This document shows positions 2,503-23,634 of a stretch of DNA of 46,987 nucleotides, piece by piece. Positions within the stretch are counted from its first letter, which is position 1. Every line of letters begins with the position of its first letter. The translations under genes were made by a program, and so were the position numbers. This DNA is from a virus (taxonomy: Duplodnaviria > Heunggongvirae > Uroviricota > Caudoviricetes): IMG/VR virus record IMGVR_UViG_2531839402_000001. One strand, written 5' to 3'. The notes beneath the pieces were generated by a model, which worked only from the letters and a program-made list of their open reading frames with translations, was not told the origin of the DNA and did not search any database.

Positions 2503-3936
2503 TTACTCCTGAATGGCAGTAACCAAATCTGCGTCGAGAGCTGTTTGATTTACCTTAAGGATATCTCCCGCTTCGGATGAATGAAGTGTATTCTCCAGTG
2601 ATTCAACTCGTTGTAGCAGTACCTTAACAGTTGCCAGCATATCCATCATGAGCACGTTATTGTCCAATTGCAGGCGATCGTCATTTACTTGCATGCCGTT
2701 CTTCATGTACGAAGTGTGCACCTGCTTAACATATTGAGGATCAACTTCCTGTGCCTGTTGAGCGACAATCCCTCTGCGAACTCTGCTCAGCTCATCATCG
2801 TTGTAGATAAACGTCACTAACTCAAGCTGACGAATGCGATCAACAGACAGCTGACCGTCAGTAGGTTCAATGTCATGCTTTAACCGCGCATCTGACGTCC
2901 CTTGAAATTGAACATTCCCATTCTGGCTACTGTAAATCCTGCCGCCAGGTAAGAACTGCCAGTACTGGACATCCTGCGAATAACCGCGAAGCATGACGAC
3001 CAGTCGATGGTTGGTTCCGACCTGTTCCTCAAACCAGATACCTCCCGCCCCAGAGTCGCCATTCCCGTCCGCGCCCCGCGTGTTTAATCTCCACGTGCTC
3101 CTCGGGGTGGCGATGATATCTCCCACTGCTGGTGAACCGTCAGATGATAAACGGCATGTAAAGCCGTCGCTATAAGCTGAGTTGTACAAAGTGCAAGCAC
3201 CATACATACCAGTACCTCCACGTACACGTAGCCCCGGAGTAATGGATAGCGCCACATCTTCTGTATAGATCCTGTGCGTATAGTCAGCCGTAGAATTGTT
3301 ATGATGAAAGTCAATGAATGGCGTAGCAGCAGAAAGCTCAATGCTCCCGGCATCAATAGCAGTGAACTTCGTGGCACTATCCTTTCGCAAAATTTGGCCT
3401 GAAGCCGTAATGTTGGCACTGAACGTAACGCCCTTACTGAACGTCTGAGTCTGTGTGAACGTGTTTGCGACGCTCGTTTTCGCTGCGTCTTTCAGCGAGT
3501 TGCTGAGAGCCGCAAGATCAGACGCTTTCGCCATTCCTGAAACAGCAGGAACAGTCACAGATGCACCTGTTAGAGGATCTGTCATCGTAATATCGCCACT
3601 TCCAGTCAGTGCGGTAGACCATCCCTGGACAACGTTACGCCAAAGGGTGAATGCGCTGGCTAGTTGGTTCGCAAAAGACGATGTACTGGCTGTTTCTGAT
3701 GTGATAATTCCATATTTCGCACCAGAAAAAGCTGTTGTGATGTTTCTCGTCAAAGTCAGTTGAGTGTCATTATTAACAGATTTGATGGCATACAGATCTG
3801 CACTTCCATTGCGATAAATGACAAGAATCGACCCCTCTTGAATACCAAGTGCAGCCTCCGACCACTTGGTGGAAATACCAGTAACCTTTGTCTGGTTTGC
3901 TGCACCTGTAACGGTGCCAACTTCGTACATTGCCAT
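2503..3936 (-). CDS. Side tail fibre with C-terminal intramolecular chaperone (peptidase S74-type) domain, 477 aa
   Basis: AAGGA RBS and ATG at 3936; N-terminal fibre attachment region; FIDFH..DY..RI fibre motif; SDARLKHDI autocleavage motif followed by a coiled coil. Confidence 0.85.
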   Translation of the reverse strand: MAMYEVGTVTGAANQTKVTGISTKWSEAALGIQEGSILVIYRNGSADLYAIKSVNNDTQLTLTRNITTAFSGAKYGIITSETASTSSFANQLASAFTLWRNVVQGWSTALTGSGDITMTDPLTGASVTVPAVSGMAKASDLAALSNSLKDAAKTSVANTFTQTQTFSKGVTFSANITASGQILRKDSATKFTAIDAGSIELSAATPFIDFHHNNSTADYTHRIYTEDVALSITPGLRVRGGTGMYGACTLYNSAYSDGFTCRLSSDGSPAVGDIIATPRSTWRLNTRGADGNGDSGAGGIWFEEQVGTNHRLVVMLRGYSQDVQYWQFLPGGRIYSSQNGNVQFQGTSDARLKHDIEPTDGQLSVDRIRQLELVTFIYNDDELSRVRRGIVAQQAQEVDPQYVKQVHTSYMKNGMQVNDDRLQLDNNVLMMDMLATVKVLLQRVESLENTLHSSEAGDILKVNQTALDADLVTAIQE

Positions 3937-3961
3937 AATTACATTCCTTGTTATTTTAATT

Positions 3962-3982
3962 GGCGGCTCTTGAAGAGCCGCC
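3962..3982. other. Perfect GC-rich hairpin between J and the fibre gene (no U tract on the coding strand)
   Basis: GGCGGCTCT-TGA-AGAGCCGCC. Confidence 0.6.
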
Positions 3983-3988
3983 TGAAAC

Positions 3989-6900
3989 TTAAGCCAAAGA
4001 GATGGAGCCGGTTGTCCTGTACATGGAGATAACCCCTGTAAATCGGAACTGCCCGCTATCGCCACGATTAGGCCACTGGATCGTGATATTCTGCGTTTGG
4101 CCGTAATTTGATGCCGGTATACGAATGGAGAAAATTGAAGTTTCAAAATTTTTACCTTCGTTACCTGAATCAAATGTCCATACAACTGTTTCATCAACGC
4201 GGATTGTTACGTTTTGACGCCAAACCTGCTGAATAATAATAGACCCGTTAAACACCATACGACGCTCAAATGGCATGCCCTGCACAGTAGCTATAGGATA
4301 CCGAGTACCTGATGATGTATCGGCTGTAGAAGGCCAGTTTTTAACAACACGGTCGGTCATTGTCACAACATCACCAACAATTTTATTAGCTTGCACTGTG
4401 CCAAGCACAGTGCAGTTCTCATTAATAGTCACGTTGTTAAGTACGCCAGTATTTGCGTGAACTTCGCCTCTGATATATACATTACTGAATCTGGAACGAC
4501 CATCTTTGTTGATAAACCACGTAGGATATCCATCACTTTCACGACTATCAGAACTAATTTCTTGCGCGATTTTCGCATTGGTGATGGAGCCATCCTTAAT
4601 CACAGCGGCATTCATGTAGGCAACGCCATTTTCCACAACAAATGGTGTGGTAGTGTTTCCGTTAGAGGTATTGATTAAGCCGAAGCGATCAGCCTGAACC
4701 AGAAACTGGCTCTGCAAATTTTTGCCATCGATACCTAAAGCGATACCAGCAGCATACTTTTTACCGTTGCTGTTGGTTTCCATTTTGACCATCCAGGTGC
4801 TATTAACGTTGCCGTTTTCAACAACCGTTTTCTTCAGCTCCTGCAGCTCGGCAGACTGGCCTCCTACCTGGGCCGTTAAATTCGTTTGCTGCTGAGACAG
4901 CGCACTAATCGTTGTGGCCTGAGTCTGCTGAGTTGATTTAATTGCCGCCATCGAAGTGGTGGCGTTATTCAACTCCGTCTGGTTCTTGATGTTTGCCGAT
5001 GCCTGCGCATCAATTTGCGACTGCAAGCTGGTATTCAGCGACGACTGCGTTTTCTCGTTGTTGGTGATGGTTTGCGCCATCTGATCAACCTTCGAAGACG
5101 CATCGTTCACCTGGGACGTCAAAGAGGACAGCTGAGACGCCTGGGATGTCACCTGCCCTTCTACATTGGTAACACGTGAGGTAAGGCTGGTGAGCGCGGA
5201 TGCGTTCGCATTAGCCGAATCTTGAGCCTCTTTTGCGTCGGTGATATCGGTGACAACAACGTCATCGATATACAGATCATACCCCGGTGTACCAGTGCCA
5301 GTTGTGCCGCGGGTAGATACCCAAAATGCGCCGCGAGTGTGGCCAGCGGCTACACGGAGCGTACCGGTGAATTTCTTCCATGCGCCTCTTGCACCCAATG
5401 CGGCTTCATTGATAGTGATTGCCGTCGGCCAGTTATTGTTGTTGGCAGCGTTTTGGGTCTGCAAACCAACGAGCGTTGACCACCCAGAGGATGGCGACTG
5501 ATCTGCCGGCATCATCGCCCAGAGTTCAATGCGGAATACCGCATTTTCACGCAGAGCAATCCACTTACCGATGGTTTTATCGCTGTTTCCGCCCTCACCG
5601 GCGCCGCGGGAAACACGCAACGACTTCGTTCCGCTTCGTTTCTGAGAGCTGACGACGACCGCACGCGAGCCGCTGATCTGCTGGTTTTCGGAGTACGTCT
5701 CCAGAGAACCATCAAACCACGGGTTGCTCCCCATCGCCTGAACAGTACTCAAAGAGTTTTTGAGCGAAGTTGTCTGGCTGCTCTGGGTTTCAATTTCTTT
5801 CTCGTTCTGCGTGACGCGATTCGTTAATGCCGTTAACGCAGCCGCATCAGCTTTCTTCGAAACATTTGTGTTTGTGGTAGCAAGGTCATTCTTAAGTTGC
5901 GTAACCTGGCTGCCCTGGCTGGTGATGTCATTCTCTGTCTTGGTCACACGACTATCGAGCTTAGTGATCGCGCTCGAGTTCGCCTGAGTTTCAACAGAGT
6001 CGGTCACATCGACGACATAAAAATCATCAAAGTACATCGCGCCGGCTGACAAGAAAGCAGTGAACTGAACGTCAGCAAGGACATCCTTTGTCGCCTTCCA
6101 TGTCCAAGACACCTCCTGCCAGTTAGAGGTGAACGGGCCATAAGCCTTACTTGCGATCAGGCCATTACCGTCCGCCACACGGAATTTTGTATTGTCGGTC
6201 GACTGAATGGTGGTATTAGGGTCCTGCTTTGCCCAAATTCCAATTTTGTACGACCGATCCTTCTTGAAGGAGATCTTCTGGCCTACGCCTGCAGAACCAC
6301 CCGCTGCTAGTTTGGCGGCTTTGGTGCCAAGATGTGGAACCTGCAGCGTTGCCACCGTGGCAATACCGCTCCAACCAGTGTAGCCCTCCGTACCACGCTC
6401 AAAAGACGGGTTTACGATCAGGTTACCGGGGATCTGGCTTGCTGCATCCACGCTGGCGTTACTGGACGCAAGGCTGTTTTCCAGCGCTGTTGTCGAGGAG
6501 CTCAGGGAGTCAATATTATCCCCTTGGGTCTTCACTGTATTCTGGAGCGTGGTAATTGCAGATGCGTTCGCATCAGCCTTCATCATCACACCACCAGCGG
6601 CGCCCAGCCCCATCATTACCCCGTTCACAAACTCGACTGAGGTCGAAATGTGGGCGGTGCCGTCGCCACCGGTTGGCGCACGCAGTTCCAGACCATCGCC
6701 CGGCTTCATACCTTTGCGGCCAAGGAGAATGTAGGCGCCACGATACGGCAGAGAGTTAACGACTTCGGAAGTGCCACCAAGAGATTCCAGGGCAGACAAC
6801 ACCTTACCTCGGTTGCCAGTTGGCTCATCGAATGTCAGGACGCAAACGTAAGTCCCACTGGCCAGTGCCTCGATATCAGCCGACATCGTGGCGCCATTAT

Positions 6901-9900
6901 TCGCGCTGCCAAAGACATCGTATGTTTTGGAGGTCGCAATCACCGTTGATCCGTCGCTGTGTTTTGCAAAAGTGACCAGCGCCCAGCTGCGACCAGGAGT
7001 AAACAGGTTCTTGCCGCTTTCATCAAACACCCCATGGGTAACGCTATTGCCATTACCCCGTGCGGTTACAGTAAACACAGTGCGACGGTTCATCGAGGCC
7101 TGCAGGCTGGTAATGCTGCTGTTCGCTGCGGTTAAATCGTCACCCTGAGATGTCACCGTGTTCCGGAGATCCTGCAATGCTGAAGCATCAGCTTTCTTGG
7201 CAATGTTGTTCTGAGCTGTCGACAGCCCGTTTTCCAGCGATGTGGTGCGATTACCGATAGAGCTTATGGAAGTGCCCTGCTGATTCACTGTCGTTGTCAA
7301 CAAGTCCACAGCCGACGCGCTGGCGCTATCAGCCGGAGAGTCGTTCCAGTCGGAAACAACGTTACCTACCTCAAACTTCGGGCTGTTGATGTACACCGTC
7401 TGGTCTTTGGAGGTATTGCTCTCGATACGGCACAGAATCAGGCGCTTGGTGCCCGTGGTAGGTGTCTGTTTCCACTTAACCCAGTAGCGGGCCCATGAAG
7501 TGGTCAGCGTGAACTGCGCACGGCCATCACTGTTGTTACCCTTCGCACCCTGGCTGGTCTCGATAGACGTTGTAGTGTTCGGATTGTAGAAGAACGCCGT
7601 CATAATCTGGCCAGCAACACCGCCTTTCGCATAGAAGCTGTAAACGTACTCACCTGCATCGACCGGCGACTCAAGCGTGATTTCCCGCAAATCCCTGTAA
7701 CCGGAGCCGGCTTTTACAGTTGCGCCAATTACCGCGTTACCACGATACGTGTCGCTGGTAACGTTCAACCAGCCGGTCATATCGCCAGAGTTCTTAATCA
7801 GGTTTGTACCGCCAACAGAAATGGCATCAACCTTGTTGTTCAGATTCGTGACAGAAGAACTCGTTGAGTTAATGTCTTTTTCGGTCTGGGTAACACGGTT
7901 GGTCAGTGCCGTCAGAGCATTGGCGTCCGCTTTTTGAGCAACGTTTGCATTTGTTGTTCTCAAATTATTCTCAAGATTGGTAGTACGTGTACCAATGCTG
8001 GAGATATTCTCCCCCTGCTGATTTACCGTAGAGGTCAGCGAATCAACCGCTTTCGCCGTAGCATCGAGAGAATCCTGAACTTTGGAGGAGTCGGTTACGT
8101 TCCGCAGATGCCAGTCGGTCACATACCAGACGGTGCCGAACGGGCTGGACTGGTTGATTTGCAGGAATGGACGGAAGAAACCGCGATCGACAATTCCCTG
8201 ATTAATTTTGAAACGCCAGGTTACTCGCTGCCATGTGGCCGACGCCTTGCGGTTGCCGCCAGATGACAGAGGCGCGCCCACGCTGCCGCTTGGCCGTGTT
8301 GCGGTTCCGAGATACAGGTTGAAATCAGCGGAGCCGGTGCCACACGCGACGAGAGCAGACATTTCATAGACATCCCCCAATGTCGCCGGAATAGCAGCAA
8401 AATTTGGGTGATGGTCGCGAGCCGCAATGCGTGCAACATAAGCGTATGGGCAATTGGCTGGCACGCCCTCAGACGAGCTGGAAACCACAGTGAAGCCCAT
8501 CTGACTAAACTCTGGGTCAAATGTCGGGTTGCTAATCAAATCGCCACTTGTCGCATTCCCTGCGCGTACAGATGAATTAAGCGCAGTGATACTGCTATTC
8601 GCGGAGGATAAGCCCGACTCTGTTTGATCGACGCGCCCGGACAACACGCTTAAAGCGCTCTGATCCGCTTTTTTACTGACGTTGTTATTGGTCGTTGCCA
8701 GGTCATTTGTCAGTTTGGTGATGCTGTTACCCTGACTGGTGATCTGGTCACCCTGTTGGGAGACGGTCGAGTCCAGTGTCGAAATCGCATTGGCGTTAGC
8801 ATCTGCTGTACTTTGCGCATTGTAGGCATCAGTTACTTCGGTAATGACCAGGTCATCAATAAGGAATGAGTTTCCCGCCTTAACGCTGCTAACGTTAGGA
8901 ATAGAAATCCTCACCATTGCCTGCTTAATACCGCTCTTCGTTGATTTCAGGTAACCAGAAACCTTCGTCCATTGAGCTGTAGACAGATCTTTCGCCGCTT
9001 TGGTTACTGCTGGCCACTGCCAGGAGTTGTCCTGATACTGGAGCGACAAGCCAATGGAGATCTGCGCATTCTCGGCCATAGCGGTGCTCTTGGCATCCAG
9101 CTTAACCCAGCATTCCATATAGAAGACTGCGTTATCGCGAACCTGGAACCCGCTGAAAATGTGATTATCGCTGTTATCAGTTGCGTTAGCGTTGTAATCA
9201 TTCGGACGCGTCACACGGATGCACTTACTACCGCCATGCGAGTCATCAGTGGTCACGATAACGCGATTATTTGATAGATTATGGCCAACCGCGTAGCTTT
9301 CAAAAGTGCCATCAGGAAGCAGATTGGCGCCGCGTTTGGATTGCTGGTTCAGAGAGCTGCTGAGCGACGTAATGTTGCTGTTCGCCGCCGTCAGACCGGA
9401 CTCCGTCTTCTCTACCCGACCTGTCAGCGTAGTGACTGCCGACTGATCGGCCTTTTTCGCGATGTTTGCGTCAGCGACTTCGAGGTCATTGGTCAACTTA
9501 GTGATGCTGTTGCCCTGACTGGTGATCTTGTCACCCTGCTGCGTCACCGTGCTCGACAACGTAGACAGCGCATCGCTATTAGCCTTGATCTTCACCTCAT
9601 CCGTGATATCAAAGACCTTAAAGGTATCAACCCAGATTTCGGCATTAGCCGGGTGCGCGTAAAGCTTAAAGTTCTGACCATCAGCGTTAGAGGCAGTAAG
9701 CCCAGTCTCCCAGGTAATGGTCTGCCACTCACTGGTGAGTGTGACGTTTTTATCTTCATAATTGCTGTCGGTCTGGCCGATTTTATTCTGGCGCCGGATC
9801 AACATGTTCATCGCCCCGGACACGCCCTTGGCTTTAACCACAACACGATATTTGCGCTGACCATTAAGCGGCAGCGGCTTGTTGTTGTTGGAGAAGATGC

Positions 9901-12900
9901 CTGGGCTGGTCGTGGTCGTCCGGTTCAGCTTAACCCCAGCCTTACCATCACCGAAGTTGCCGAAAGCGACGCCCGCCGGATACTGGATATCCCAAGCAGT
10001 TGCACCCTGCAGGAAATCGTAGTTCGGGATCAGGTTGTCACCGGCGTTTCTGGCAGCGGTCAGGGTATTATTCAGGTTCGTGATGCTGTTACCCTGGCTG
10101 GAAATCGTATCCCCCTGCTTGGAGACCGTATTTTGCAGCGTAGACAGCGCCTGTGCATCTGCCTTATTCGCCAGATTAGCGTTGGTCTGTTCGAGGCTGT
10201 TTCGCAGATCAGTAACGCTCTGCGAGGTGCTCGTGACGCGATCACCTACGGTGCTGACGTTTGAGGTGACGGCGCTAATGACATTCGAAAGCGCGTTCAT
10301 CCCAAGAGCAGAATTCAGCTGGGCTACTTTCTCGGACAGTTTAAAACCGAGGTTAATGTAAGCCTGACCAGTCCATTGGTTCACCAGGAACTCAACCGTG
10401 CTCCAGCCAGCTTTCAGATCAAAGCTAACCGTATTCCAGCTCGCATTACCAAAGGCAGCCCTAACACCGTTCACGTACACGGCGCCCGTATCATCAAAAA
10501 CACGAGCCCCTGGTGCCATAGTGATGGTGGTATCAGCATTGACCTTCACGAAGGCTTTGTAATGCGCGATCACGTAACTGCCGGCGCTCGCAAAGTCCAG
10601 TTTTGCAGCGTCAGGAACCTCCTCGATCGAGGTTGGCGCCTTACCGTTGATATCGCTAAAGGTCGGCTCAATAGTGCTGTTTGCCAGTTGTACGTTGTAT
10701 ACGCTACGCACCCACATGTTCTGGCGGCCGTTAACTATCTGGTTTGACAGCGAAGTGATGCTGTTGGAGTTAGACGTAATGTCTTTTCCCTGCTGGGTCA
10801 CGGTACTGTTGAGGGTTGATAACGCATTGGACGTCGCATCAATCGCCTTCTCATTGCTCACGTCAACGCAGAAGACGTCATCGAGATACATATAGCCGGA
10901 AGCGACACTTGCGCGCAGAGACACAACCACGCTCGCGGTTTTGGCTGGCGTATACTCGCCGCTAATAAGCGCCCAGTTAGTCGACAGCCCGGCGCCAGTG
11001 ATCGGGATATCCTTTATCGGCGTCAGATCTGCGTTTCGAAGGCTAATTTTGTTGTTGCCGGCATTATTGATCGCGAAGTCAGCGGATTTGCGAACCCATG
11101 CGCCGATACGATAAGTCTTGCCGGCCTGCAGCTCGACCGTTTGGTTGCAGCCCGAGTCACCGCCAGAGGCCAGTTTGCCCGCCTGGATGATGTATTTACC
11201 CGATTTGGGGTTCTGGGCCTCCAACAGAGTCCAGCCGACATACTCCCAACCTTCGAAACCACGTTCAAAAGAGTTGTTTTTGAGCATGTTGCCGATGATC
11301 GCTTTCGAGGCATCCGCATCAGCATTGGCGTTATCCAGCGAGTTTGACAGGCTGGTGATGCTCTGGGACTGGCTGGAGATCTGATTTTCGGCAGCAGTTA
11401 CGCGGTTTGTCAGATTAGTCACAGCTGAGGCGTCAGCTTTGTTCTTGATGCTGTTCTGCATCGAAGTGATCTGCTGCCCCTGGCTGGTGATGGTGCCCTC
11501 AACAGACGATACCCGAGAGGTCAAAGCATTGGTGGCACTGGCGTTCGCCTCAATCGCCAGAGCATCAGTGACGTCAACAAAACCAACATCATCGAAGTAC
11601 TGAGAACCGGTTTTGAGAGAAGACATGATCGATACGTCAACTTTACCGGTCAGCGTCGCCTTCCAGGTATCAGAGACCTCCTTCCATGTTTCATCTTTGG
11701 GCAGATTCTCCGGACGGATCGGAATCTCTTTGAGCAACGTGGCCGCGCCAATACGCAGTTTGTTGTTGCCAGGGCTGCTGATCACCGCATCAGTGGTACA
11801 CCGCACAAAAGAGGACAGCTTGTATGTCCGCCCTTCGACGACGCTTACAGATTGCGTGATTTGCACCGTGCCGGCGGCGCAAACAAGAATTTTGCTACCA
11901 GAATGGGGCGCACTCGCCTTGATAACACTGGATACGCTGTTCCCTGCAGACCACCCTGCCAGGTCACGCTCAAAGGAGGCGTTAACCAGCAAATTGCTCG
12001 GGTTGCTTTTGGCAGTATCGGTATCGCTCTGGATATCGCTTAGCGAGTTATTCAGGGTGGTGATGCTTTCACTCTGGCTGCTAAGGGTTTTATCCTGCTG
12101 GGTTACGGTCGACTGCAGACCCGTGATCGCCTTGCTATTCGCAGATACACCAGACTCAACACTTCCTACGCGATTATCCAGCGTAGACAATGCCGCCCCT
12201 TGTGATTTAAGGGTGTTGCCCTGCTCTTCGACCTTCTGGGAAATTGTCTGTACCGCACTGGCATCGGCCTTCTGGCCAAGGCTTGTTTGCAACCCGGTAA
12301 TCTTGCTTGCCTGGGAAGCTTGTTCAGTGGACAGCGTATGCAGCTCTTCTGCAACAGAGGCTTTGTTTCTGTTGAATTCAGTCTGCAAGGATTCACGCGC
12401 ACTCGCTTCCGCAGCATCGGCGGTGATACGAGCATTTTTCTCCTGATAGATCAGACCGGAGCGAATGTCGTCCAGATTTCCGCTTTCAGAGGAACCGCGG
12501 ATTTGTGCAGCCAATGTGCTGCGCGCCTGCGCTTCGGCGGTATCCGCATTCGCACGAGCCTGCTGCTCTTCCTGTAACGCCGCCATGCCTGCGCCCGGCG
12601 TCGGCCGACCGACAGCGATCCAGTCGAATAACAGGTAATTGTCCGCATCCTGACCCGAAGTGAAATCGAAGCGGAAACGACGAATCGTTGTCGAATCTCT
12701 CCACTCAATGTCGTGCAGGGTCAGAATCGCAATACCCTTGTCATCGTATTCCGGCTCACTGATAACCACGGAGCGACCAGCATTCCAGCCGGTTTCATCA
12801 GCGCCGATCCAGAACATTTTGGCGTTCCAGGTTGGGTTGCCAACCTTTTTAATGCGCATCTTAATGAAACGATAAGCATGGGCATCGATCGTCAAGCCGT

Positions 12901-15900
12901 TAGGGGAACGACAGGTTGAGGTCGGATTGTTCGCTTTCAGCCAGCCATCGCTGGTGACGCTCATTGGCGTGTAGCCATTATCATCTTCCGTCCAGCCTTC
13001 AGCGTCCTGGTCGAAATACCAGATTTTCAGAGAGTCAAACTGTTCCCCTGTGCCAGCGGCAATCTGCGAGATCTGTCGCGCGAGGTTTTCGTCACCGGAG
13101 GTCACAACCTCAGACAAGCTATCGATAGAGGTTTTCAGCTCATTCTTCGCGCTCAGCAGTTGGTCGGCCGCTTGCTTGGCTGCATCATTAACATCTGCAA
13201 TACGGTCATTCGTCTCTTTCTGAATGGCCGCAGTCAGATCTTTGCTGGTCTGGGACAGCGACGTTGTCAGTGATGACTGCGCATTCTTAATCTTCTGCGA
13301 CAGAGCAGCGTCGCCGTCTTTAATCGACTGTTTTGCAGCTTCAATTTGGCTGTTTACGTTGGAGATGTTGGTATTGATCGTCTGGTTGACCGTATCGATA
13401 TTGTCGACAATTGTCTGATTGACGGTATCAATGTCCTCTTTCAGCGACTGATTGACAGAGTCAACCTGCGCCTTAATTTCGGAGGAGGTTTGCGCAAGGT
13501 CGTTTTCAACTTGCTGAATAGACTCGTTGACTGAGTTCTGAACCTCGCCAATGGCGTTGTCTACCGCCTCCTGAGTGGCTTTGCTGTCGATTTCGTCGAG
13601 CAGCTCCTTGCCGAGTTCAGAAGATGTGATCTTGTCTTTCAGGAAAGACAATACGTCGCGAGTGGTGGCCTCTGTACCGAGGTTCGAGTTCGGCTGGCCT
13701 ACCATCCCACGTTTGTTTACCGCACGAATCCAGTAATACCAGGTCTCGTTGTCACCCAGGCCAGCGTGAGTGAAAGTCGTTGTGGCGGCCTGAGCAATGA
13801 GTGTTGCGGTGTCCAGCTTATTTGTTTTGGACGCATACACGTTGATCTGCGCGAGGTCGACTGAATCAGGGTTAACCCAATTCAATACCACGTTACGATA
13901 ATCCCCCACCGCGGTCAGTGATGTGGGCGCCCCTGGCGGCGTCATCGTGCCTTTTACCTGATAGACAGCAGTAATGATCTCGGATTTTTTGCCGCCGAAG
14001 GAAACGGAATACAGCTGGAAGTCATATCGCCCATTTTCGGCAACATTGACGATTTCATATTGTTCTTCCGTGGCGCGGGCAGATTGCCAGTTCGAGACGT
14101 TGCCCTCGTCGGAGCGGCGCCAGCTGACCCAGTATTCTGGTGATTTACCTTCCCAGGCAAGCATCAGCTTCACGGACAAGTTGCCCGGACTGGACAGATA
14201 GGTGCCTTCTGAGATGACCAGATTGCTCGGTTTGGAATATGTGGGATCAAGAACCGTCGTATTTTCTGGAACGAGCGCGGCCCCGTTATCAATCGCCTGG
14301 TACTTAGATGCATTGTTCTGCACCACCGTGATATCAAACGACCCCGGGGTTTCACCTTGCGCGATAGCGACAACGCGCGCCCGCATTGGAACCAGGTCTG
14401 GTTCGGTGATCGTCCAGACGCCATTCGCTACTGGTTGATCGGCTGTGGCCAACGCCGTCTTGAAGGTAACTTTAGTGATGTTGTCGCCGGTCTCGTTGAT
14501 GTCTCGCTCAACGATTTTTCCTTCCTGATTGATGATACGGATGAAGCTACCGCTCTTTTTCAGAGAGACAGGTGCATCGAGGGTGATGCTGTTTTTGGTG
14601 AAAGAGACAATGCGACCGGAATTGCGTTTGCCGGCACGATATTTGTTCTGGATCAGAACGGTTTCGCCCGGCATCAGGAACGAGGCGTCCAGGCCCGCGG
14701 TAAAGGTGATCATGTCTGACTCCATACGCGCGGTATAGAGCAGCCACAAACCTACACGATGAGCCTGACCACGGCTGGTGCATCCGAACGCAACGGCCTC
14801 AGTCTTGCGCTCCCCGTATCGGGCCATCGCTTCCTGATCTTCAACATACTCAACGTTCTGCTTATAGCCGTCTTGTTTGTTGTTATAGGTAATCAGCGCA
14901 ACGGACGGCCGGTCTTTTCGAGCAGAGCCTTTATAGGTAAACAGGCCATCTTTTACGTTTGCGTTGGTAAACAGCATGACAGGGTCAGACGGGCTGTCCT
15001 GCATGATATTCACCATGCCACCAGCCCAGAAAACCATGCCACGGAAAGCGCCGGCAATATCCTGAATCAGACGATAAGCGTCCTGACGACTGGTGATCTG
15101 GGTGTTGATTGCAAAGCGTTTTTCTTTGCCGCCAAAGCCATCATCAACCTCTTCGTCGCAGTAGCGACCGATCTGATAAAGCTGGCCAAGGTCAATCATT
15201 GACTCCGAAACAAATTTGCCGAGGCCATAACGAGCATTGGTCAGCAGATCGAACAGAATCCAGGCAGGGTTGGAAGACGACAGAAGCTTAAAGGTTCCAT
15301 CCCAAACGCCGTTATAAGTGTTCGTGTTTTCATCATAATTCGAAGGCACACGGATTTTGAGGCCACGGATAAGATACGAACGTGACGGCATAGAGCTACC
15401 AAACTGCTCAGAGTTAACCTTAAGGCCAACCAGAACGGAGTTCGGGTAGTTCATTGGGGTGTCAACGATCTCACCGATAGAGTCGACCCAGGTATCGTTA
15501 AAGAGATACTGATCGTTGCTGTCGGCGGAGAGACGAAGCACGCGCACTTTATAGGCACGCCCAGGCTTTGGAAGCTGTATTTCGTAACTGCGGTAGTATA
15601 CACCAGTCTTTTTCGCAGTCAGCGTCACGTCAGAGCTGCTCTCACCTGTAGCAATCACGTCATAGAAAGAGCCATTGCCGTTGGCTAGCTGGAACTTAAA
15701 CTGGACCGAAGTACCGTTTGTGTCCCCTGTTTTCTTGTCAATGCTACGCAGCGACGGGAACTTCATGATCACTCGGACACGATCAGCGTCGTCGTTATCG
15801 ATGGCGACCGTAACCGCGTTTGTGGTTTTCAGCTGTGTGTTAACGGCCTTTGGCGTTTCGACAAAATCGAAACCAGGCATCGGGCTTTGGTCTTGCGAAC

Positions 15901-16162
15901 CATCCCGGAAATCCCAGGTTACACCGGAATAGTTGAATGATCCGTCTTCGTTCTCCAGCGCCACGCCATCGATGAAGATAGATTTAGCGCCGTTAATCAA
16001 CCCACCAACAACACCTTCCCCGAGCAGATCGAGGATAGACGCCATGGCCCGCGAATTAACGGTATCATCCGCTTCAACTGGTGTACGGCTTGAGCCTGAG
16101 CTCTTTTTGCCGCCCGCTCCCGCAATCAGGAGTGGCAATCTCTTTTTCTTGAACTGATCCAT
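3989..16162 (-). CDS. Giant central tail fibre / host-specificity protein J (lambda TipJ-like), 4,057 aa, with FN3 and multiple carbohydrate-binding-like modules
   Basis: AAGGGA RBS. The N-terminal ~640 aa have lambda J motifs (DLLGEG, SNPAW..FDLLTN.RYGLG, FGCTSRGQAHR.G.W). Then two FN3-like repeats, repeated N(L/M)..N..F...W beta-sandwich modules, and a DUF1983-like AAGIALG..SQFLVQADRF..PFVVENG region. Follows tail gene I. Confidence 0.93.
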   Translation of the reverse strand: MDQFKKKRLPLLIAGAGGKKSSGSSRTPVEADDTVNSRAMASILDLLGEGVVGGLINGAKSIFIDGVALENEDGSFNYSGVTWDFRDGSQDQSPMPGFDFVETPKAVNTQLKTTNAVTVAIDNDDADRVRVIMKFPSLRSIDKKTGDTNGTSVQFKFQLANGNGSFYDVIATGESSSDVTLTAKKTGVYYRSYEIQLPKPGRAYKVRVLRLSADSNDQYLFNDTWVDSIGEIVDTPMNYPNSVLVGLKVNSEQFGSSMPSRSYLIRGLKIRVPSNYDENTNTYNGVWDGTFKLLSSSNPAWILFDLLTNARYGLGKFVSESMIDLGQLYQIGRYCDEEVDDGFGGKEKRFAINTQITSRQDAYRLIQDIAGAFRGMVFWAGGMVNIMQDSPSDPVMLFTNANVKDGLFTYKGSARKDRPSVALITYNNKQDGYKQNVEYVEDQEAMARYGERKTEAVAFGCTSRGQAHRVGLWLLYTARMESDMITFTAGLDASFLMPGETVLIQNKYRAGKRNSGRIVSFTKNSITLDAPVSLKKSGSFIRIINQEGKIVERDINETGDNITKVTFKTALATADQPVANGVWTITEPDLVPMRARVVAIAQGETPGSFDITVVQNNASKYQAIDNGAALVPENTTVLDPTYSKPSNLVISEGTYLSSPGNLSVKLMLAWEGKSPEYWVSWRRSDEGNVSNWQSARATEEQYEIVNVAENGRYDFQLYSVSFGGKKSEIITAVYQVKGTMTPPGAPTSLTAVGDYRNVVLNWVNPDSVDLAQINVYASKTNKLDTATLIAQAATTTFTHAGLGDNETWYYWIRAVNKRGMVGQPNSNLGTEATTRDVLSFLKDKITSSELGKELLDEIDSKATQEAVDNAIGEVQNSVNESIQQVENDLAQTSSEIKAQVDSVNQSLKEDIDTVNQTIVDNIDTVNQTINTNISNVNSQIEAAKQSIKDGDAALSQKIKNAQSSLTTSLSQTSKDLTAAIQKETNDRIADVNDAAKQAADQLLSAKNELKTSIDSLSEVVTSGDENLARQISQIAAGTGEQFDSLKIWYFDQDAEGWTEDDNGYTPMSVTSDGWLKANNPTSTCRSPNGLTIDAHAYRFIKMRIKKVGNPTWNAKMFWIGADETGWNAGRSVVISEPEYDDKGIAILTLHDIEWRDSTTIRRFRFDFTSGQDADNYLLFDWIAVGRPTPGAGMAALQEEQQARANADTAEAQARSTLAAQIRGSSESGNLDDIRSGLIYQEKNARITADAAEASARESLQTEFNRNKASVAEELHTLSTEQASQASKITGLQTSLGQKADASAVQTISQKVEEQGNTLKSQGAALSTLDNRVGSVESGVSANSKAITGLQSTVTQQDKTLSSQSESITTLNNSLSDIQSDTDTAKSNPSNLLVNASFERDLAGWSAGNSVSSVIKASAPHSGSKILVCAAGTVQITQSVSVVEGRTYKLSSFVRCTTDAVISSPGNNKLRIGAATLLKEIPIRPENLPKDETWKEVSDTWKATLTGKVDVSIMSSLKTGSQYFDDVGFVDVTDALAIEANASATNALTSRVSSVEGTITSQGQQITSMQNSIKNKADASAVTNLTNRVTAAENQISSQSQSITSLSNSLDNANADADASKAIIGNMLKNNSFERGFEGWEYVGWTLLEAQNPKSGKYIIQAGKLASGGDSGCNQTVELQAGKTYRIGAWVRKSADFAINNAGNNKISLRNADLTPIKDIPITGAGLSTNWALISGEYTPAKTASVVVSLRASVASGYMYLDDVFCVDVSNEKAIDATSNALSTLNSTVTQQGKDITSNSNSITSLSNQIVNGRQNMWVRSVYNVQLANSTIEPTFSDINGKAPTSIEEVPDAAKLDFASAGSYVIAHYKAFVKVNADTTITMAPGARVFDDTGAVYVNGVRAAFGNASWNTVSFDLKAGWSTVEFLVNQWTGQAYINLGFKLSEKVAQLNSALGMNALSNVISAVTSNVSTVGDRVTSTSQSVTDLRNSLEQTNANLANKADAQALSTLQNTVSKQGDTISSQGNSITNLNNTLTAARNAGDNLIPNYDFLQGATAWDIQYPAGVAFGNFGDGKAGVKLNRTTTTSPGIFSNNNKPLPLNGQRKYRVVVKAKGVSGAMNMLIRRQNKIGQTDSNYEDKNVTLTSEWQTITWETGLTASNADGQNFKLYAHPANAEIWVDTFKVFDITDEVKIKANSDALSTLSSTVTQQGDKITSQGNSITKLTNDLEVADANIAKKADQSAVTTLTGRVEKTESGLTAANSNITSLSSSLNQQSKRGANLLPDGTFESYAVGHNLSNNRVIVTTDDSHGGSKCIRVTRPNDYNANATDNSDNHIFSGFQVRDNAVFYMECWVKLDAKSTAMAENAQISIGLSLQYQDNSWQWPAVTKAAKDLSTAQWTKVSGYLKSTKSGIKQAMVRISIPNVSSVKAGNSFLIDDLVITEVTDAYNAQSTADANANAISTLDSTVSQQGDQITSQGNSITKLTNDLATTNNNVSKKADQSALSVLSGRVDQTESGLSSANSSITALNSSVRAGNATSGDLISNPTFDPEFSQMGFTVVSSSSEGVPANCPYAYVARIAARDHHPNFAAIPATLGDVYEMSALVACGTGSADFNLYLGTATRPSGSVGAPLSSGGNRKASATWQRVTWRFKINQGIVDRGFFRPFLQINQSSPFGTVWYVTDWHLRNVTDSSKVQDSLDATAKAVDSLTSTVNQQGENISSIGTRTTNLENNLRTTNANVAQKADANALTALTNRVTQTEKDINSTSSSVTNLNNKVDAISVGGTNLIKNSGDMTGWLNVTSDTYRGNAVIGATVKAGSGYRDLREITLESPVDAGEYVYSFYAKGGVAGQIMTAFFYNPNTTTSIETSQGAKGNNSDGRAQFTLTTSWARYWVKWKQTPTTGTKRLILCRIESNTSKDQTVYINSPKFEVGNVVSDWNDSPADSASASAVDLLTTTVNQQGTSISSIGNRTTSLENGLSTAQNNIAKKADASALQDLRNTVTSQGDDLTAANSSITSLQASMNRRTVFTVTARGNGNSVTHGVFDESGKNLFTPGRSWALVTFAKHSDGSTVIATSKTYDVFGSANNGATMSADIEALASGTYVCVLTFDEPTGNRGKVLSALESLGGTSEVVNSLPYRGAYILLGRKGMKPGDGLELRAPTGGDGTAHISTSVEFVNGVMMGLGAAGGVMMKADANASAITTLQNTVKTQGDNIDSLSSSTTALENSLASSNASVDAASQIPGNLIVNPSFERGTEGYTGWSGIATVATLQVPHLGTKAAKLAAGGSAGVGQKISFKKDRSYKIGIWAKQDPNTTIQSTDNTKFRVADGNGLIASKAYGPFTSNWQEVSWTWKATKDVLADVQFTAFLSAGAMYFDDFYVVDVTDSVETQANSSAITKLDSRVTKTENDITSQGSQVTQLKNDLATTNTNVSKKADAAALTALTNRVTQNEKEIETQSSQTTSLKNSLSTVQAMGSNPWFDGSLETYSENQQISGSRAVVVSSQKRSGTKSLRVSRGAGEGGNSDKTIGKWIALRENAVFRIELWAMMPADQSPSSGWSTLVGLQTQNAANNNNWPTAITINEAALGARGAWKKFTGTLRVAAGHTRGAFWVSTRGTTGTGTPGYDLYIDDVVVTDITDAKEAQDSANANASALTSLTSRVTNVEGQVTSQASQLSSLTSQVNDASSKVDQMAQTITNNEKTQSSLNTSLQSQIDAQASANIKNQTELNNATTSMAAIKSTQQTQATTISALSQQQTNLTAQVGGQSAELQELKKTVVENGNVNSTWMVKMETNSNGKKYAAGIALGIDGKNLQSQFLVQADRFGLINTSNGNTTTPFVVENGVAYMNAAVIKDGSITNAKIAQEISSDSRESDGYPTWFINKDGRSRFSNVYIRGEVHANTGVLNNVTINENCTVLGTVQANKIVGDVVTMTDRVVKNWPSTADTSSGTRYPIATVQGMPFERRMVFNGSIIIQQVWRQNVTIRVDETVVWTFDSGNEGKNFETSIFSIRIPASNYGQTQNITIQWPNRGDSGQFRFTGVISMYRTTGSISLA

Positions 16163-16178
16163 GTTCAAAAAACTTCCC

Positions 16179-18731: not shown

Positions 18732-21700
18732 CTACCCTCTGGTGGTATGCGGATTAAGTGAACCACCAGAACGTTTCTCTTCGGCAATCGTCTCAAGCAC
18801 AATCGACTTGATTTGCCGTGCTGCGCCGTTCCAGAGACTGCTCTCGCTTCCACTGCTGCTCTCGCTGGTTCGGCCATCCTTGGTTACATTGATCTGAATC
18901 GAGACAGGTGACACCGCATTACCCGTACTCTTTCCACCTGACTCTGCAGAAAGTGTGACTGGAATGGTTCGACCATCTGGCAGCGGTACGTAAGCCTCAT
19001 TCATTGAGCCCTCGCCAAACATCGCCAACTGCGGTGAGGTGGCGATTCCGCCTTTCTGATAGGCTCTCAGAGGTACAACCCCTTCCTTGCCAAAGATGCC
19101 GCCATTGGCGTGTTTCTTCACATTAGGCTTTGGCTCAGATGAAGACGATGAAGCTGACCCAGCCCAGGCGGATACTGCGGTACTGGCCAGTGACAGACCG
19201 AAATTCAGCCAACGGCTGGACGAACTCGACGACGAAGCACCTACCATGGCGAATGTAGCTGCCAGCGCCCCAGCCGCGGTAGACAGATTCCCCATACTGA
19301 GGATGCTGCTGTTAACCGCTTTGGTTTGATCTTTCGTAGCGTCAGTACCGGTGAACAATGACTTAGTCCAGTCCCAGACGCCATTCACCGCCTGACTTAA
19401 ACCACTGGCCGCATTCTGAGACGCTTGCCCCATAGAGTTCACGCCGGAGGCTGTCTCCTTAGTGGCCTCGCCGACAGATTTATCCCCATTGGCCACCGAC
19501 ACACCAGAATTACCTAGCTGAACCCCTTGATTAGCGATCGCAGACGCTACGCCATTCATGAGATTTCCACTTTGTGCATTGCCAGCGTTTGTCGTTCCCA
19601 TTCCCAACATATTCATGAGAGGCAAAGTGATCTGAGTCTTCACGACCATGTTGGTGATGTCTTTAAGGAACGATGTGGCCAGACTGGAGATGCTCATCTT
19701 CCCGTTAACAACAAAGTCAGTAAGCGTGTCAGTTAAACCGCTAAACAGATCTGTCCAGGTACCTTCGATCTGGTCAGCCAGGTTTTCATATTCCAGAGCC
19801 AACTGCTGGGTCGCTGTGCCTGTTTGCTTAATCAGCGCATTATTGCCAGCGGCCACCAGCTGATTAAGCTGCTTGTTGTAAAGCGAGATGATTTTCGGGT
19901 CAGTCGCCTTATCACGCAGCTCGATCAGCGCCTTAAGATTGCGGTTGTAGGTATCCGAAAACTCGGCAGCCTTCTCCTCATGGCTTTGCATCAAGCCTGC
20001 GCTGATAATCGAATCCGATTCCGGCGCCCAAGCGCTGATCATTTGCTCGACGTTGCGGCGATTAAACATTTCACGGTATTCGGGGGTAGCGTTCCTCAAA
20101 TCCGCGAGACGTTTTTTAGCCTGGTCAACCATCTCCTGCGAGATAAACTCGTTAGGCGTGGCGTTTGCAAGATCGGTTAGTGACTTAGTGACATCACGCA
20201 GCGACTGATCAAACGACACGGTGGCCTTTGAACTTTCGCCCATTTGCCCCATGAGCTGATCAGCTTTATCCAGAGCCTTCTGGAAGCCGGCAGCCAGCTT
20301 CTGTTGCGCACTTTCCTCCCTCTTCGCGGCGCGTTCAGAGGCATTCGCGGTACGCTTCCCCGCCCTCTCGGCGGCAGCAGCATCCTGTTCACGAGCTTTG
20401 GTTAGTGCGGCTATGGCGGCTGCACGCTCCTTCTCGCTCATCTTTTCCAGAGACGATGCAGTGGAGGCTTTCTGCAGGTTAAGCTGGGTTTTAAGCTGCT
20501 TCGGCCCAATGATAGGTTTTCCTTCAAAATCCATCATTGGTGTGCCATCAGGCAGCGTGCGCTGGTAAACCGCAGAGTCCATCTGGTTGCGCATGTACTG
20601 CGCGAGCGCTTTATCAGCGCCTTTGTCGCTGGTGCCCAACCCAAGCACTGTTCCCTGGTTGGTCTTCACGCCCTTCCCGGTTTTCGCCGCGTTATCGCGT
20701 TCAAACTCAGCCTGTGTCAGTTCCTGAGCAATCGTCTCCAGGTGTTCCTGATAGCCGCGAATACTGCCCTGCAGCTTCTGAACCTGTTCTGTGTTTCCTT
20801 CTTTTTTCGCCTTTTCCAGCAAATCGCTAAAATGTGCGATCTGCTTTTCAGTTGCGGTCTTGCGCGATGATAAAGAGTCGACAAGTTTCTGGGCCGGCTG
20901 CAGATAAGATTTGTTTACTGTCTCTCGCAGCGGCGCAAGCAGCTTGTTCTTCTCATCATCGGACAGTGTTTTGTCGTCATTGATCTTCTGGATTTTGTCC
21001 AGTGCCTCCTGACGCGCTTTAACAAACGTAGCTGAGAAGAGCTGATTGTCCGCCCGGATTTTCTCGATCTGGGATTCAGCAGCCTCTTTCGCCAGACGTT
21101 TGGATACAGCGCCATCCCCCAGCGCGATGGTGTCAGTGGTTCTCTTGTACTCTTCCTGATTTTTCTTCAGTCGAGCCTCAACAACCTCTTTAGACTCCTT
21201 AACGGCGACAGGGCCGGCGACTGTGGAAATGTAGTTCACACTTTCGCCAGATTTAAGCGCTTGCTGGTCCCGCTGAATTTGCTTCTCTAGCTGCGATGCG
21301 CGCTCCGCCATTTGTGCGCGCTTGGCCGCCGTCATCGCTTCGGGGATTTTGCGAATCTCCTCAACAACTTTGGACGTTTCGTTGCGAAGCATGGTCATGT
21401 AGGTGATCAGCCCGGCAACAGCCACTGTTGCAACGGTAAACGCAGCACCAATCGGGTTTGCTGCGATAAACGCAGTCAGCCCAGCGAATGCCCCTTTCAG
21501 CCCCGTAATCGCGCCACGAATGGCAAAAATGAGCGATGGGATTGGTGCCAGTCCCATGCGTGCAGCACGATTGAAACGAGTGACCGCCGTCGCTCCCAGC
21601 GTGAATGGTGTCTGGATTACAGTGGACATCTTCATGAAGGTGGAAAGCATCTGGCCGCCGGCGCCGACAACACCTAAAATGCCCGCTCTGAGCATTTTAA

Positions 21701-23270: not shown

Positions 23271-23277
23271 TCCCTTG

Positions 23278-23634
23278 TCATCCTCTGCCAAAAATTTGCA
23301 TCAGTTGCTCTTTGGCGTCGGGGTCTGCCTTATCCATATGCGGACGGTAGACTTTATCAGTAACGACTGGCCTTCCAATCCTGAGTTGCAAACCCTCCAT
23401 GAACGCCTTAACGCCATCGCCATCCGCTTGGGCGACGCGGGCGACCTGCAGATTGCGGACATCCTCTTCCGCTCGCAGACGATCGATATTGCGGCTGAGC
23501 ATCCAGAACATGGTCAATGGGACACTCAGTAGCTCTGTTGGCGATACGGCGTAGTGAGCAACTACACGACTGAAATAGAATCCGAGATCTATCGAAACGG
23601 TCTTTACCCCGGATTCATCGCGGGATATTACTTT
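23278..23634 (-). CDS. Tail assembly chaperone T segment, probably expressed as a G-T fusion by -1 frameshift
   Basis: The -1 frame is open from the A-AAG at the end of G (KVISRDESGVKTVSIDLGFYFSRVVAHY...LTMFWMLSRNIDRL) to the stop at 23278; no strong internal RBS. Confidence 0.72.
   Translation of the reverse strand, partial: KVISRDESGVKTVSIDLGFYFSRVVAHYAVSPTELLSVPLTMFWMLSRNIDRLRAEEDVRNLQVARVAQADGDGVKAFMEGLQLRIGRPVVTDKVYRPHMDKADPDAKEQLMQIFGRG

Follow-up and report, generated by a model that had tools for sequence, protein, structure and literature searches.

The window analysed here is a 46,987-nucleotide (nt) stretch of viral DNA (Caudoviricetes; IMG/VR record IMGVR_UViG_2531839402_000001), and the gene under study is the giant J-type tail-fibre gene that it carries on its minus strand, as are all features located below. 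A single uninterrupted open reading frame (ORF), at 3989..16168, comprises 4,059 codons when counted from a TTG. Its third codon is an ATG (at 16162), which delimits a gene at 3989..16162, with the stop codon at 3989-3991, and a protein of 4,057 amino acids (aa). An NCBI record under the name 'phage tail tip fiber protein' (P0004) has the same sequence (100% identity), and PHROG 2589, a profile of 3,686 positions, already covers the protein. By ORF order, the gene follows homologues of the tape-measure, M, L, K and I genes of a lambda-like tail operon; L, K and I are also annotated directly upstream of the J gene in phages pJN2-26 and phiKO2. The J gene in the window is an intact tail-tip fibre gene, and its product is the central tail fibre, of the lambda gpJ family, of an SSU5-type Klebsiella phage-plasmid of about 110 kb. 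Its architecture is real and striking: a lambda-J-type protein is lengthened about fourfold by a coiled-coil rod that bears 11 domains of sugar-binding type.

The two ends of the protein are those of an ordinary J. The hub (aa 3-831; 13676..16162) contains the Pfam domains FNIII-A_GpJ (PF24801, aa 103-237, 108.6 bits) and Phage-tail_3 (PF13550, aa 359-521, 109.3 bits) as well as fn3. Residues 3-836 of lambda J (PDB 8iyk) align with aa 22-861 with an expectation (E) value of 4e-145, and the F2-pyocin fibre (25vf) matches the hub at E 1e-144. At the other extremity, the tail-tip fibre domain (aa 3781-3908; 4445..4828) corresponds to Pfam Phage_Tail_Tip (PF09327, the former DUF1983), found at aa 3778-3908 with 131-135.5 bits, and residues 843-1035 of lambda J align over this domain, with aa ~3773-3972. 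Lambda J is 1,132 aa long in 8iyk. The two halves of a normal J thus align to the two ends of the protein, with about 2,950 extra residues between them. Judged by these alignments, both ends of the fibre place it in the lambda gpJ family. Beyond the tip domain lies a variable distal end (aa 3909-4059; 3992..4444), presumed to be the receptor-binding part.

Between the hub and the tip domain, 12 heptad-repeat coiled-coil segments (K0 to K11) alternate with 11 beta-sandwich modules (M1 to M11). The modules are stretches rich in aromatic residues, glycine and proline, and the 12 intervening segments are poor in the same residues. Comparison of the whole protein with itself by BLAST gave the identity match alone; internal repeats were detected after the protein had been cut into pieces. 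In this piecewise comparison, M2, M3 and M10 are mutually 33-35% identical (E about 1e-22) and M6 and M11 are 29% identical (E 2e-19). Exactly eight modules (M2, M3, M5, M6, M7, M8, M10 and M11) carry a start motif of the GN(L/M)..N..F type. An end motif is found in its strict form, (Y/F/L).DD....(D/E)(V/I)(T/S)(D/N), in five (M2, M3, M6, M10 and M11), and relaxed forms can be read in M5, M7 and M8. Both motifs are the fold signature of the carbohydrate-binding module (CBM) family CBM_4_9, made by its N- and C-terminal strands, and they are no evidence of a ligand site. Much of this layout had been anticipated from the letters of the DNA. The original prediction gave the length of 4,057 aa, a lambda-J core and a DUF1983-like tip as flanks, a length of about 1,130 aa for lambda J itself, coiled-coil linkers alternating with beta-sandwich modules, and 11 module intervals that agree with ours within 3 nt; its count of eight CBM_4_9-like start motifs and its two sets of look-alike modules (M2/M3/M10 and M6/M11) were also recovered. 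Its statement that most modules end in a common motif holds loosely, when the relaxed forms are counted, and fails for the strict form, present in 5 of 11.

The modules were scanned singly against Pfam, in which CBM_4_9 (PF02018) has a gathering cut-off of 25.9 bits. Five modules exceed it: M2 (aa 1391-1534; 11567..11998; 35.6 bits), M3 (aa 1626-1771; 10856..11293; 37.2 bits), M5 (aa 2042-2189; 9602..10045; 26.8 bits, barely above the cut-off), M10 (aa 3247-3389; 6002..6430; 38.5 bits) and M11 (aa 3480-3644; 5237..5731; 26.2 bits). M10 is nearest to CBM16 and matches the CBM16 structure 2zew over its full length (E 1e-10). The same family is missed when the whole protein (4,059 aa) is scanned, with no CBM_4_9 match at E <= 1, although these modules score 26-38 bits singly; standard whole-protein annotation thus hides most of the domains of such fibres.

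Module homologues were gathered from 1.84 billion cluster representatives and profiles were built from them; each module family is kept across 12-50 divergent relatives. M6 (aa 2280-2447; 8828..9331) is a divergent CBM_4_9-like module. It scores 23.3 bits, under the Pfam cut-off, and the M6/M11 family matches the M2/M3/M10 family in hhalign with 99% probability (E 6.5e-18). The single-module Pfam scan gave no CBM_4_9 match for M7 or M8. M7 (aa 2541-2693; 8090..8548), the most conserved module family, is classed by profile comparison as remotely CBM_4_9-like: hhalign pairs it with the M2 family at 91% probability (E 1e-6, 140 columns), and its neighbours in a language-model atlas are CBM_4_9 clusters (0.94). 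The M7 family is probably homologous to the M2/M3/M10 family. It has numerous invariant polar or aromatic residues, including R44, H46, Q133 and W141. A marginal match of the M7 profile in the PDB, to the central fibre gp20 of mycobacteriophage Douge (E 0.006), was set aside. Direct homology to the M2 family found no support in hhalign for the M8 family (13%) or the M1 family (3%), so that these two assignments rest on fold in the case of M8 and on a homologue from roseophage R4C in the case of M1. M1 (aa 1043-1188; 12605..13042) is a jelly roll homologous to the carbohydrate-binding domain of the R4C megatron protein (profile match to 8gtc_M residues 487-617, E 1.9e-15), and its atlas neighbours are galactose-binding-like and CBM families. 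M9 (aa 3027-3183; 6620..7090) is ILEI/FAM3-like: it matches Pfam ILEI (PF15711) with 42.2 bits against a cut-off of 27, and its profile matches FAM3B at E 6e-4 and FAM3C at E 7e-3.

As M4 and M8 were left without a family assignment, they were modelled from alignments with AlphaFold2 (AF2). Both models are confident all-beta folds, with predicted local distance difference test (pLDDT) scores of 94.0 and 94.9, respectively. M8 (aa 2786-2944; 7337..7813) is modelled as a CBM4/CBM16/CBM30-like jelly roll. Its Foldseek matches are a phi812 baseplate protein, CBM4-2, Tuc2009 BppA and CBM16 (E 5e-6 to 1e-4); the model also matches CBM30 and CBM22, and the M8 profile matches 3see, a 'sugar binding protein' (E 2e-4). 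M4 (aa 1813-1946; 10331..10732) was compared with 48,161 chains by VIA-align, in which the top four matches are all PA14 domains (Cea1A, Z 11.3; MhLap, 10.9; RsgI3, 9.9; MpIBP, 9.8), aligned over 115-128 of its 134 residues. Flo5A and Epa6A are also among its structural matches, PA14/GLEYA phage proteins are among those in the viral structure library BFVD, and the M4 profile matches the lectins 6t0q and 6kbj (E 4e-5). Lectin-type PA14 domains such as those of Flo5, Epa1 and MpIBP carry a calcium-binding Asp-cis-Asp motif. An Asp-Asp pair (D80-D81 of the module, aa 1892-1893) is invariant in 17 homologues of M4. The Pfam scan of M4 gave no PA14 match at E <= 10 and a Cadherin-like match at 0.004 only; M4 is accordingly filed as PA14-fold, not as a member of the Pfam family. 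Its fold also matches the N-terminal domains of glycoside hydrolase family 2 (GH2) enzymes.

From these profile and model comparisons, all 11 modules can be placed in carbohydrate-binding fold families: eight are CBM_4_9/CBM16-like, one is CBM11-like, one is PA14 and one is ILEI/FAM3. The word 'lectin-like', applied beforehand to the whole array, is thereby borne out as a fold family for every module. It should be noted that membership of a fold family describes what a module looks like, not that it binds sugar. The PA14 identity of M4 and the R4C-type identity of M1 are new here.

The coiled-coil segments amount to 1,286 residues. K0 (aa 832-1042; 13043..13675) is a long heptad-repeat segment that aligns with 9l9p_S up to residue 1022. 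It is followed, after M1, by the linker repeats K1 (aa 1189-1390; 11999..12604), a coiled coil, K2 (aa 1535-1625; 11294..11566), K3 (aa 1772-1812; 10733..10855), a half-length unit, K4 (aa 1947-2041; 10046..10330), K5 (aa 2190-2279; 9332..9601), 68% identical to K6 (aa 2448-2540; 8549..8827), K7 (aa 2694-2785; 7814..8089), K8 (aa 2945-3026; 7091..7336), K9 (aa 3184-3246; 6431..6619) and K10 (aa 3390-3479; 5732..6001), and finally by K11 (aa 3645-3780; 4829..5236), the last coiled coil. The 12 linkers are mutually related (35-68% identity) and are built as a doubled unit of about 44 aa. Autocorrelation of their large hydrophobic residues reaches 0.37, 0.30 and 0.25 at lags of 7, 14 and 21, the heptad period. 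A profile made from ten linkers finds the trimeric coiled-coil core of P22 gp26 (E 3e-10) and, less strongly, reovirus sigma1 (E 1e-4). K11 has its homologue in the pre-tip shaft of solved J-like fibres: it aligns with 23gd_D 870-1118, 9l9p_S 899-1134 and residues 1015-1200 of the F2-pyocin fibre, and it is 42% identical to K10 (E 8e-9). The pattern SxSxxMxxLxS, reported as that of a fold switch in the central fibres of F-type pyocins (PMC12874032), occurs 23 times in the linkers as against 10.6 +/- 3.2 in shuffled sequences, an enrichment of about twofold. One conserved copy stands at the start of almost every linker, and the density is about one per 33 aa when both orientations are counted. 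New here, as drawn from these alignments, are the homology of the linkers to gp26 and the connection between K11 and the fold-switch region of pyocin fibres.

The gene has already been sequenced hundreds of times. The number of recorded near-identical proteins of 4,044-4,092 aa exceeds 1,843; they go under the names 'phage tail tip fiber protein' or 'DUF1983 domain-containing protein'. The J gene is present on 408 plasmids of PLSDB, of which 399 come from Klebsiella. Among 5,426 complete E. coli genomes, 15 carry it, always on a plasmid (of ~110 kb among the matches listed). The best plasmid match is a K. oxytoca plasmid (99.9%), where the gene is annotated 'Gp21', and an identical protein is recorded from K. 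michiganensis. Across elements of E. coli, Shigella, K. pneumoniae, K. variicola, K. quasipneumoniae, K. aerogenes and K. michiganensis, the array is 93-100% identical. In contrast, the distal ~150-200 aa are only 12-24% identical between length classes whose arrays show that degree of identity, and at least seven unrelated tip types are found on one array type among the 120 closest proteins. In comparison with two relatives, the ratio of nonsynonymous to synonymous substitution rates (dN/dS) is 0.06-0.08 for the modules, 0.03-0.06 for the linkers and 0.02-0.05 for the hub, with M4 and M8 looser at about 0.2. The modules of the array are under purifying, not diversifying, selection. Since the array stays near-identical across hosts while the tips are exchanged, it is the tip, and not the array, that follows the host. 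The original prediction had suggested correlating the number and identity of the modules with the capsule (K) and O-antigen (O) loci of the host. Tuning of the modules to these types is not supported, and it is rejected on the conservation of the array and on its purifying selection. Of the multivalent glycan-scanning fibre that it had pictured, a J-type fibre carrying domains of carbohydrate-binding fold on coiled coils stands, and an array tracking host K/O type does not. The selection analysis and the contrast between tip and array are new here.

The array is nevertheless not immutable. A relative of 4,317 aa (P0002) has an exact tandem duplication of 261 aa, made of M6 and one linker and 91% identical to the adjoining copy, and a relative of 4,249 aa (P0003) has a 193-aa duplication of the M5 unit; these duplications show directly that modules are gained through the repeated linkers. 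The Klebsiella phage pJN2-26 has, in place of M7 and the half-linkers next to it (window ~7934-8680, aa ~2497-2745), a module that fits none of the module classes of the window, between flanks that are identical or nearly so. On this alignment, the replacement reads as a clean cassette swap with break points inside linker repeats. Such variants are rare. On a larger scale, positions 6471-9455 of the window (linker K5 through M9) are shared, at 93% nt identity, with tail-fibre genes of two Klebsiella phages of 46-52 kb, 48ST307 and Kp4865-4, which points to a recent exchange of several modules at once between the phage-plasmid and unrelated temperate phages.

More distant relatives are numerous. 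The M4-M8 part of the array (aa 1805-2950) is matched by 873 clusters at 50% identity, 148 of them at E <= 1e-30, and many of the proteins in the matching clusters are 2,000-4,800 aa long. The best 150 relatives are J-like proteins with anything from none to a dozen module classes in varying order; among them, an M1-class module is almost always the first after the hub and an M6-class module is often the last before the tip. The array matches 55 Klebsiella phage records as well as phages of Acinetobacter, Stenotrophomonas, Xanthomonas, Streptococcus and Enterococcus; Escherichia phage records among these matches number one at most. The hosts concerned are rich in polysaccharide, and this association counts in favour of the adhesive reading given below.

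It can be proposed that three chains form a rod. If the 1,286 linker residues made one continuous coiled coil, at 0.148 nm per residue, this rod would be about 190 nm long. Three copies of each module would project from it at 11 nodes and would offer up to 33 weak glycan-binding sites. The modules may then provide reversible, multivalent attachment of low specificity to surface polysaccharide, whether capsule, O-antigen or another exopolysaccharide. The rod would let the variable tip reach a specific outer-membrane receptor through a thick capsule in the absence of a depolymerase. Host specificity would reside in the tip, and the array would be a generalist device for adhesion and reach. A generalist, low-specificity function of the array in adhesion or reach is plausible, and we lean, if only slightly, towards this full reading of a multivalent fibre whose tip alone specifies the host. 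Beside the length of the rod, that of the tail may be mentioned. The tape-measure ORF (18732-23291, minus strand, 1,519 aa) predicts a tail of ~230 nm at the usual 0.15 nm per residue, and the predicted central fibre (~190 nm) is thus nearly as long as the predicted tail.

The depolymerase-free route is consistent with a search in six frames of the nearest complete relative, which gave no Pect-lyase (PF12708) and no Beta_helix (PF13229) domain, these being the two families searched, in that relative. Downstream of the J gene and separate from it lies a side-fibre gene (2503..3948; 481 aa), annotated 'putative tail fiber' in pJN2-26. Its product ends in a C-terminal Peptidase_S74 intramolecular chaperone domain (47.7 bits in Pfam), and a Pfam scan of this protein gave no depolymerase-type domain.

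Several points weigh against a generalist adhesive array. The depolymerase check concerned two Pfam families and a relative, not the window's own element. A CBM fold alone is no proof of a ligand. The ligand residues of CBM16-1, which we take to be W20, Q81, Q93, Q121 and W125, are mostly lost in M10, which keeps the first alone in the alignment with 2zew; the site of M10, if there is one, therefore differs. A fibre of 190 nm also poses the problem of how the tail tube would reach the membrane after the tip has bound. Finally, a near-identical array across hosts with very different surface glycans suits a structural role equally well.

This last point makes a structural ruler the main rival. 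The modules would then be non-binding nodes that hold the three chains in register and make the coiled coil stiffer, and only the length of the fibre, set so as to span the capsule, would matter. Besides an array that hardly varies between hosts whose surface glycans are unrelated, this explanation draws on the equal constraint of linkers and modules, on conserved motifs that are strands of a fold signature with no obvious ligand site, and on the wide variation of module order and number in relatives, as if modules were interchangeable. However, plain immunoglobulin-like (Ig) or fibronectin type III spacers would serve equally as nodes, and none is found: the 11 modules come from four glycan-binding fold families, each module family is kept across divergent relatives, and M7 has the many invariant polar and aromatic residues listed above. 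A ruler is considered unlikely, if still to be taken seriously.

The conservation of the array across different enterobacterial hosts would also suit a ligand shared by their habitat. The modules would in this case bind glycans that do not belong to the host cell, such as gut mucin or a biofilm matrix, and would keep virions near their hosts. The mucus-adherence model proposes such a role for Ig-like decorations of the capsid. Relatives in CBM_4_9 and CBM16 bind plant or microbial glucans and mannans, according to PDB titles. It should, however, be noted that the modules are carried not by the capsid but by the infection organelle, between the hub and the receptor-binding tip, and that this architecture is found preferentially among phages whose hosts are capsulated. 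Adhesion to the habitat is held to be improbable.

Alternatively, the linkers could be serial copies of the coiled coil that, in the central fibres of F-type pyocins, switches to a beta-prism; once the tip had bound, one linker after another would switch, so that the fibre would become shorter and the tail would be drawn through the capsule. In favour of this, K11 can be aligned with the pre-tip shaft of the F2-pyocin fibre and of the J-like gp24, K1-K10 are its paralogues, as the K10/K11 comparison illustrates, and the SxSxxMxxLxS pattern exceeds its frequency in shuffled sequences. Yet a continuous beta-prism would call for a far denser pattern, and among solved structures the linkers best match the stable coiled coil of P22 gp26 and not a pyocin fibre. 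Retraction of this kind is improbable in our view, and it would be compatible with glycan binding by the modules. Combining the two, a multi-stage retractable tether can be imagined in which the modules anchor in the capsule while successive linker switches shorten the ~190-nm rod and reel the tail tip to the outer membrane; we hold this to be a long shot. If true, such a tether would be an ATP-independent winch able to cross thick capsules without a depolymerase. Last, an enzymatic fibre, in which one or more modules would degrade or modify capsule or O-antigen as a hidden depolymerase, could be suggested by the usual attachment of CBMs to glycoside hydrolases and by the GH2 match of M4, but it is rejected as very improbable, since Pfam, PHROGs and the PDB reveal no catalytic domain anywhere in the protein and the GH2 match is to a non-catalytic sugar-binding domain that PA14 domains outrank.

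The question is of some practical weight. Phage-plasmids of this type, of about 110 kb, are widespread in clinical Klebsiella, and some relatives, among them vB_Kpn_1825-KPC53 and ST13-OXA48phi12.3, carry carbapenemase or other resistance genes; resistance-gene-carrying elements of the same kind have been discussed (PMC9600943). How their virions adsorb thus bears on the spread of resistance by infection. A K20 Klebsiella strain spontaneously released a plasmid prophage with 99% identity to vB_Kpn_1825-KPC53, and this prophage showed a common host-range pattern when a panel of capsular types was challenged (bioRxiv 10.1101/2024.10.29.620800), which indicates that virions of such elements are infectious in the laboratory. 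The fibre is a test case for how a siphophage crosses a thick capsule with no recognisable depolymerase, and for the role of strings of CBM-like domains on central fibres. With a conserved array, swappable tips, and modules gained, lost or replaced through the linkers, it is also an experimentally tractable system. In the literature available for searching, no study of the function or structure of this J array was found, and a paper on Webervirus receptors mentions neither the central fibre nor CBMs.

Several known systems share parts of this architecture. Lambda gpJ (8iyk, 8xcj) has the same hub, tail-tip domain and gene position after M, L, K and I. Its shaft is short, whereas ~2,950 aa of coiled coil and 11 modules separate hub and tip here, and the distal end is unrelated to its LamB-binding domain. 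Giant J proteins have been on record since gp21 of the Klebsiella phage phiKO2 (3,433 aa, 'similar to lambda J protein'), which shows the same alternation of coils and modules and 37% identity over 62% of the array. Unlike the present element, phiKO2 is an N15-like linear plasmid prophage, and its module set and order differ. The tail needle gp26 of P22 (4lin, 3c9i, 2poh) has a trimeric coiled-coil core that matches the linkers, including an A-N-x-x-A-I-x-x-L element, but it is a plug or needle of 233 aa without inserted domains. The central fibre of F-type pyocins (25vf) aligns in the hub and in the region just before the tip domain and also has a coiled-coil shaft; there, a single coiled coil of 163 residues, with no inserted modules, was shown to switch fold (PMC12874032).

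As to the modules, adsorption devices decorated with CBMs are well known in phages of Gram-positive hosts. The CBM domains of Tuc2009 BppA (5e7t) and of the phi812 baseplate (9euf) share the fold of M8, with one or a few CBMs per baseplate protein and not eleven along a J fibre. The R4C megatron protein (8gtc) carries the homologue of the M1 family as an accessory domain on a tail-tip hub protein, described as a 'carbohydrate-binding domain' (residues 487-617) of CtCBM11-like topology (PMC10276861); it is one domain on a compact baseplate, without a fibre array. The pb4 orthologues of Lyra, Lyris and Mirion, T5-like phages of Klebsiella grimontii, are giant trimeric central fibres of 3,446-3,454 aa, modelled as variable combinations of lectin-like and Ig-like beta-domains, for which a role in carbohydrate binding was proposed (PMC13611949, 2026), and they pose the same question of what strings of such domains do on a central fibre. 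Their backbone is that of T5 pb4 and their linkers are collagen triple helices, as opposed to a lambda J backbone and alpha-helical coiled coils here, so that the pb4 fibres and the J array look like a case of convergence.

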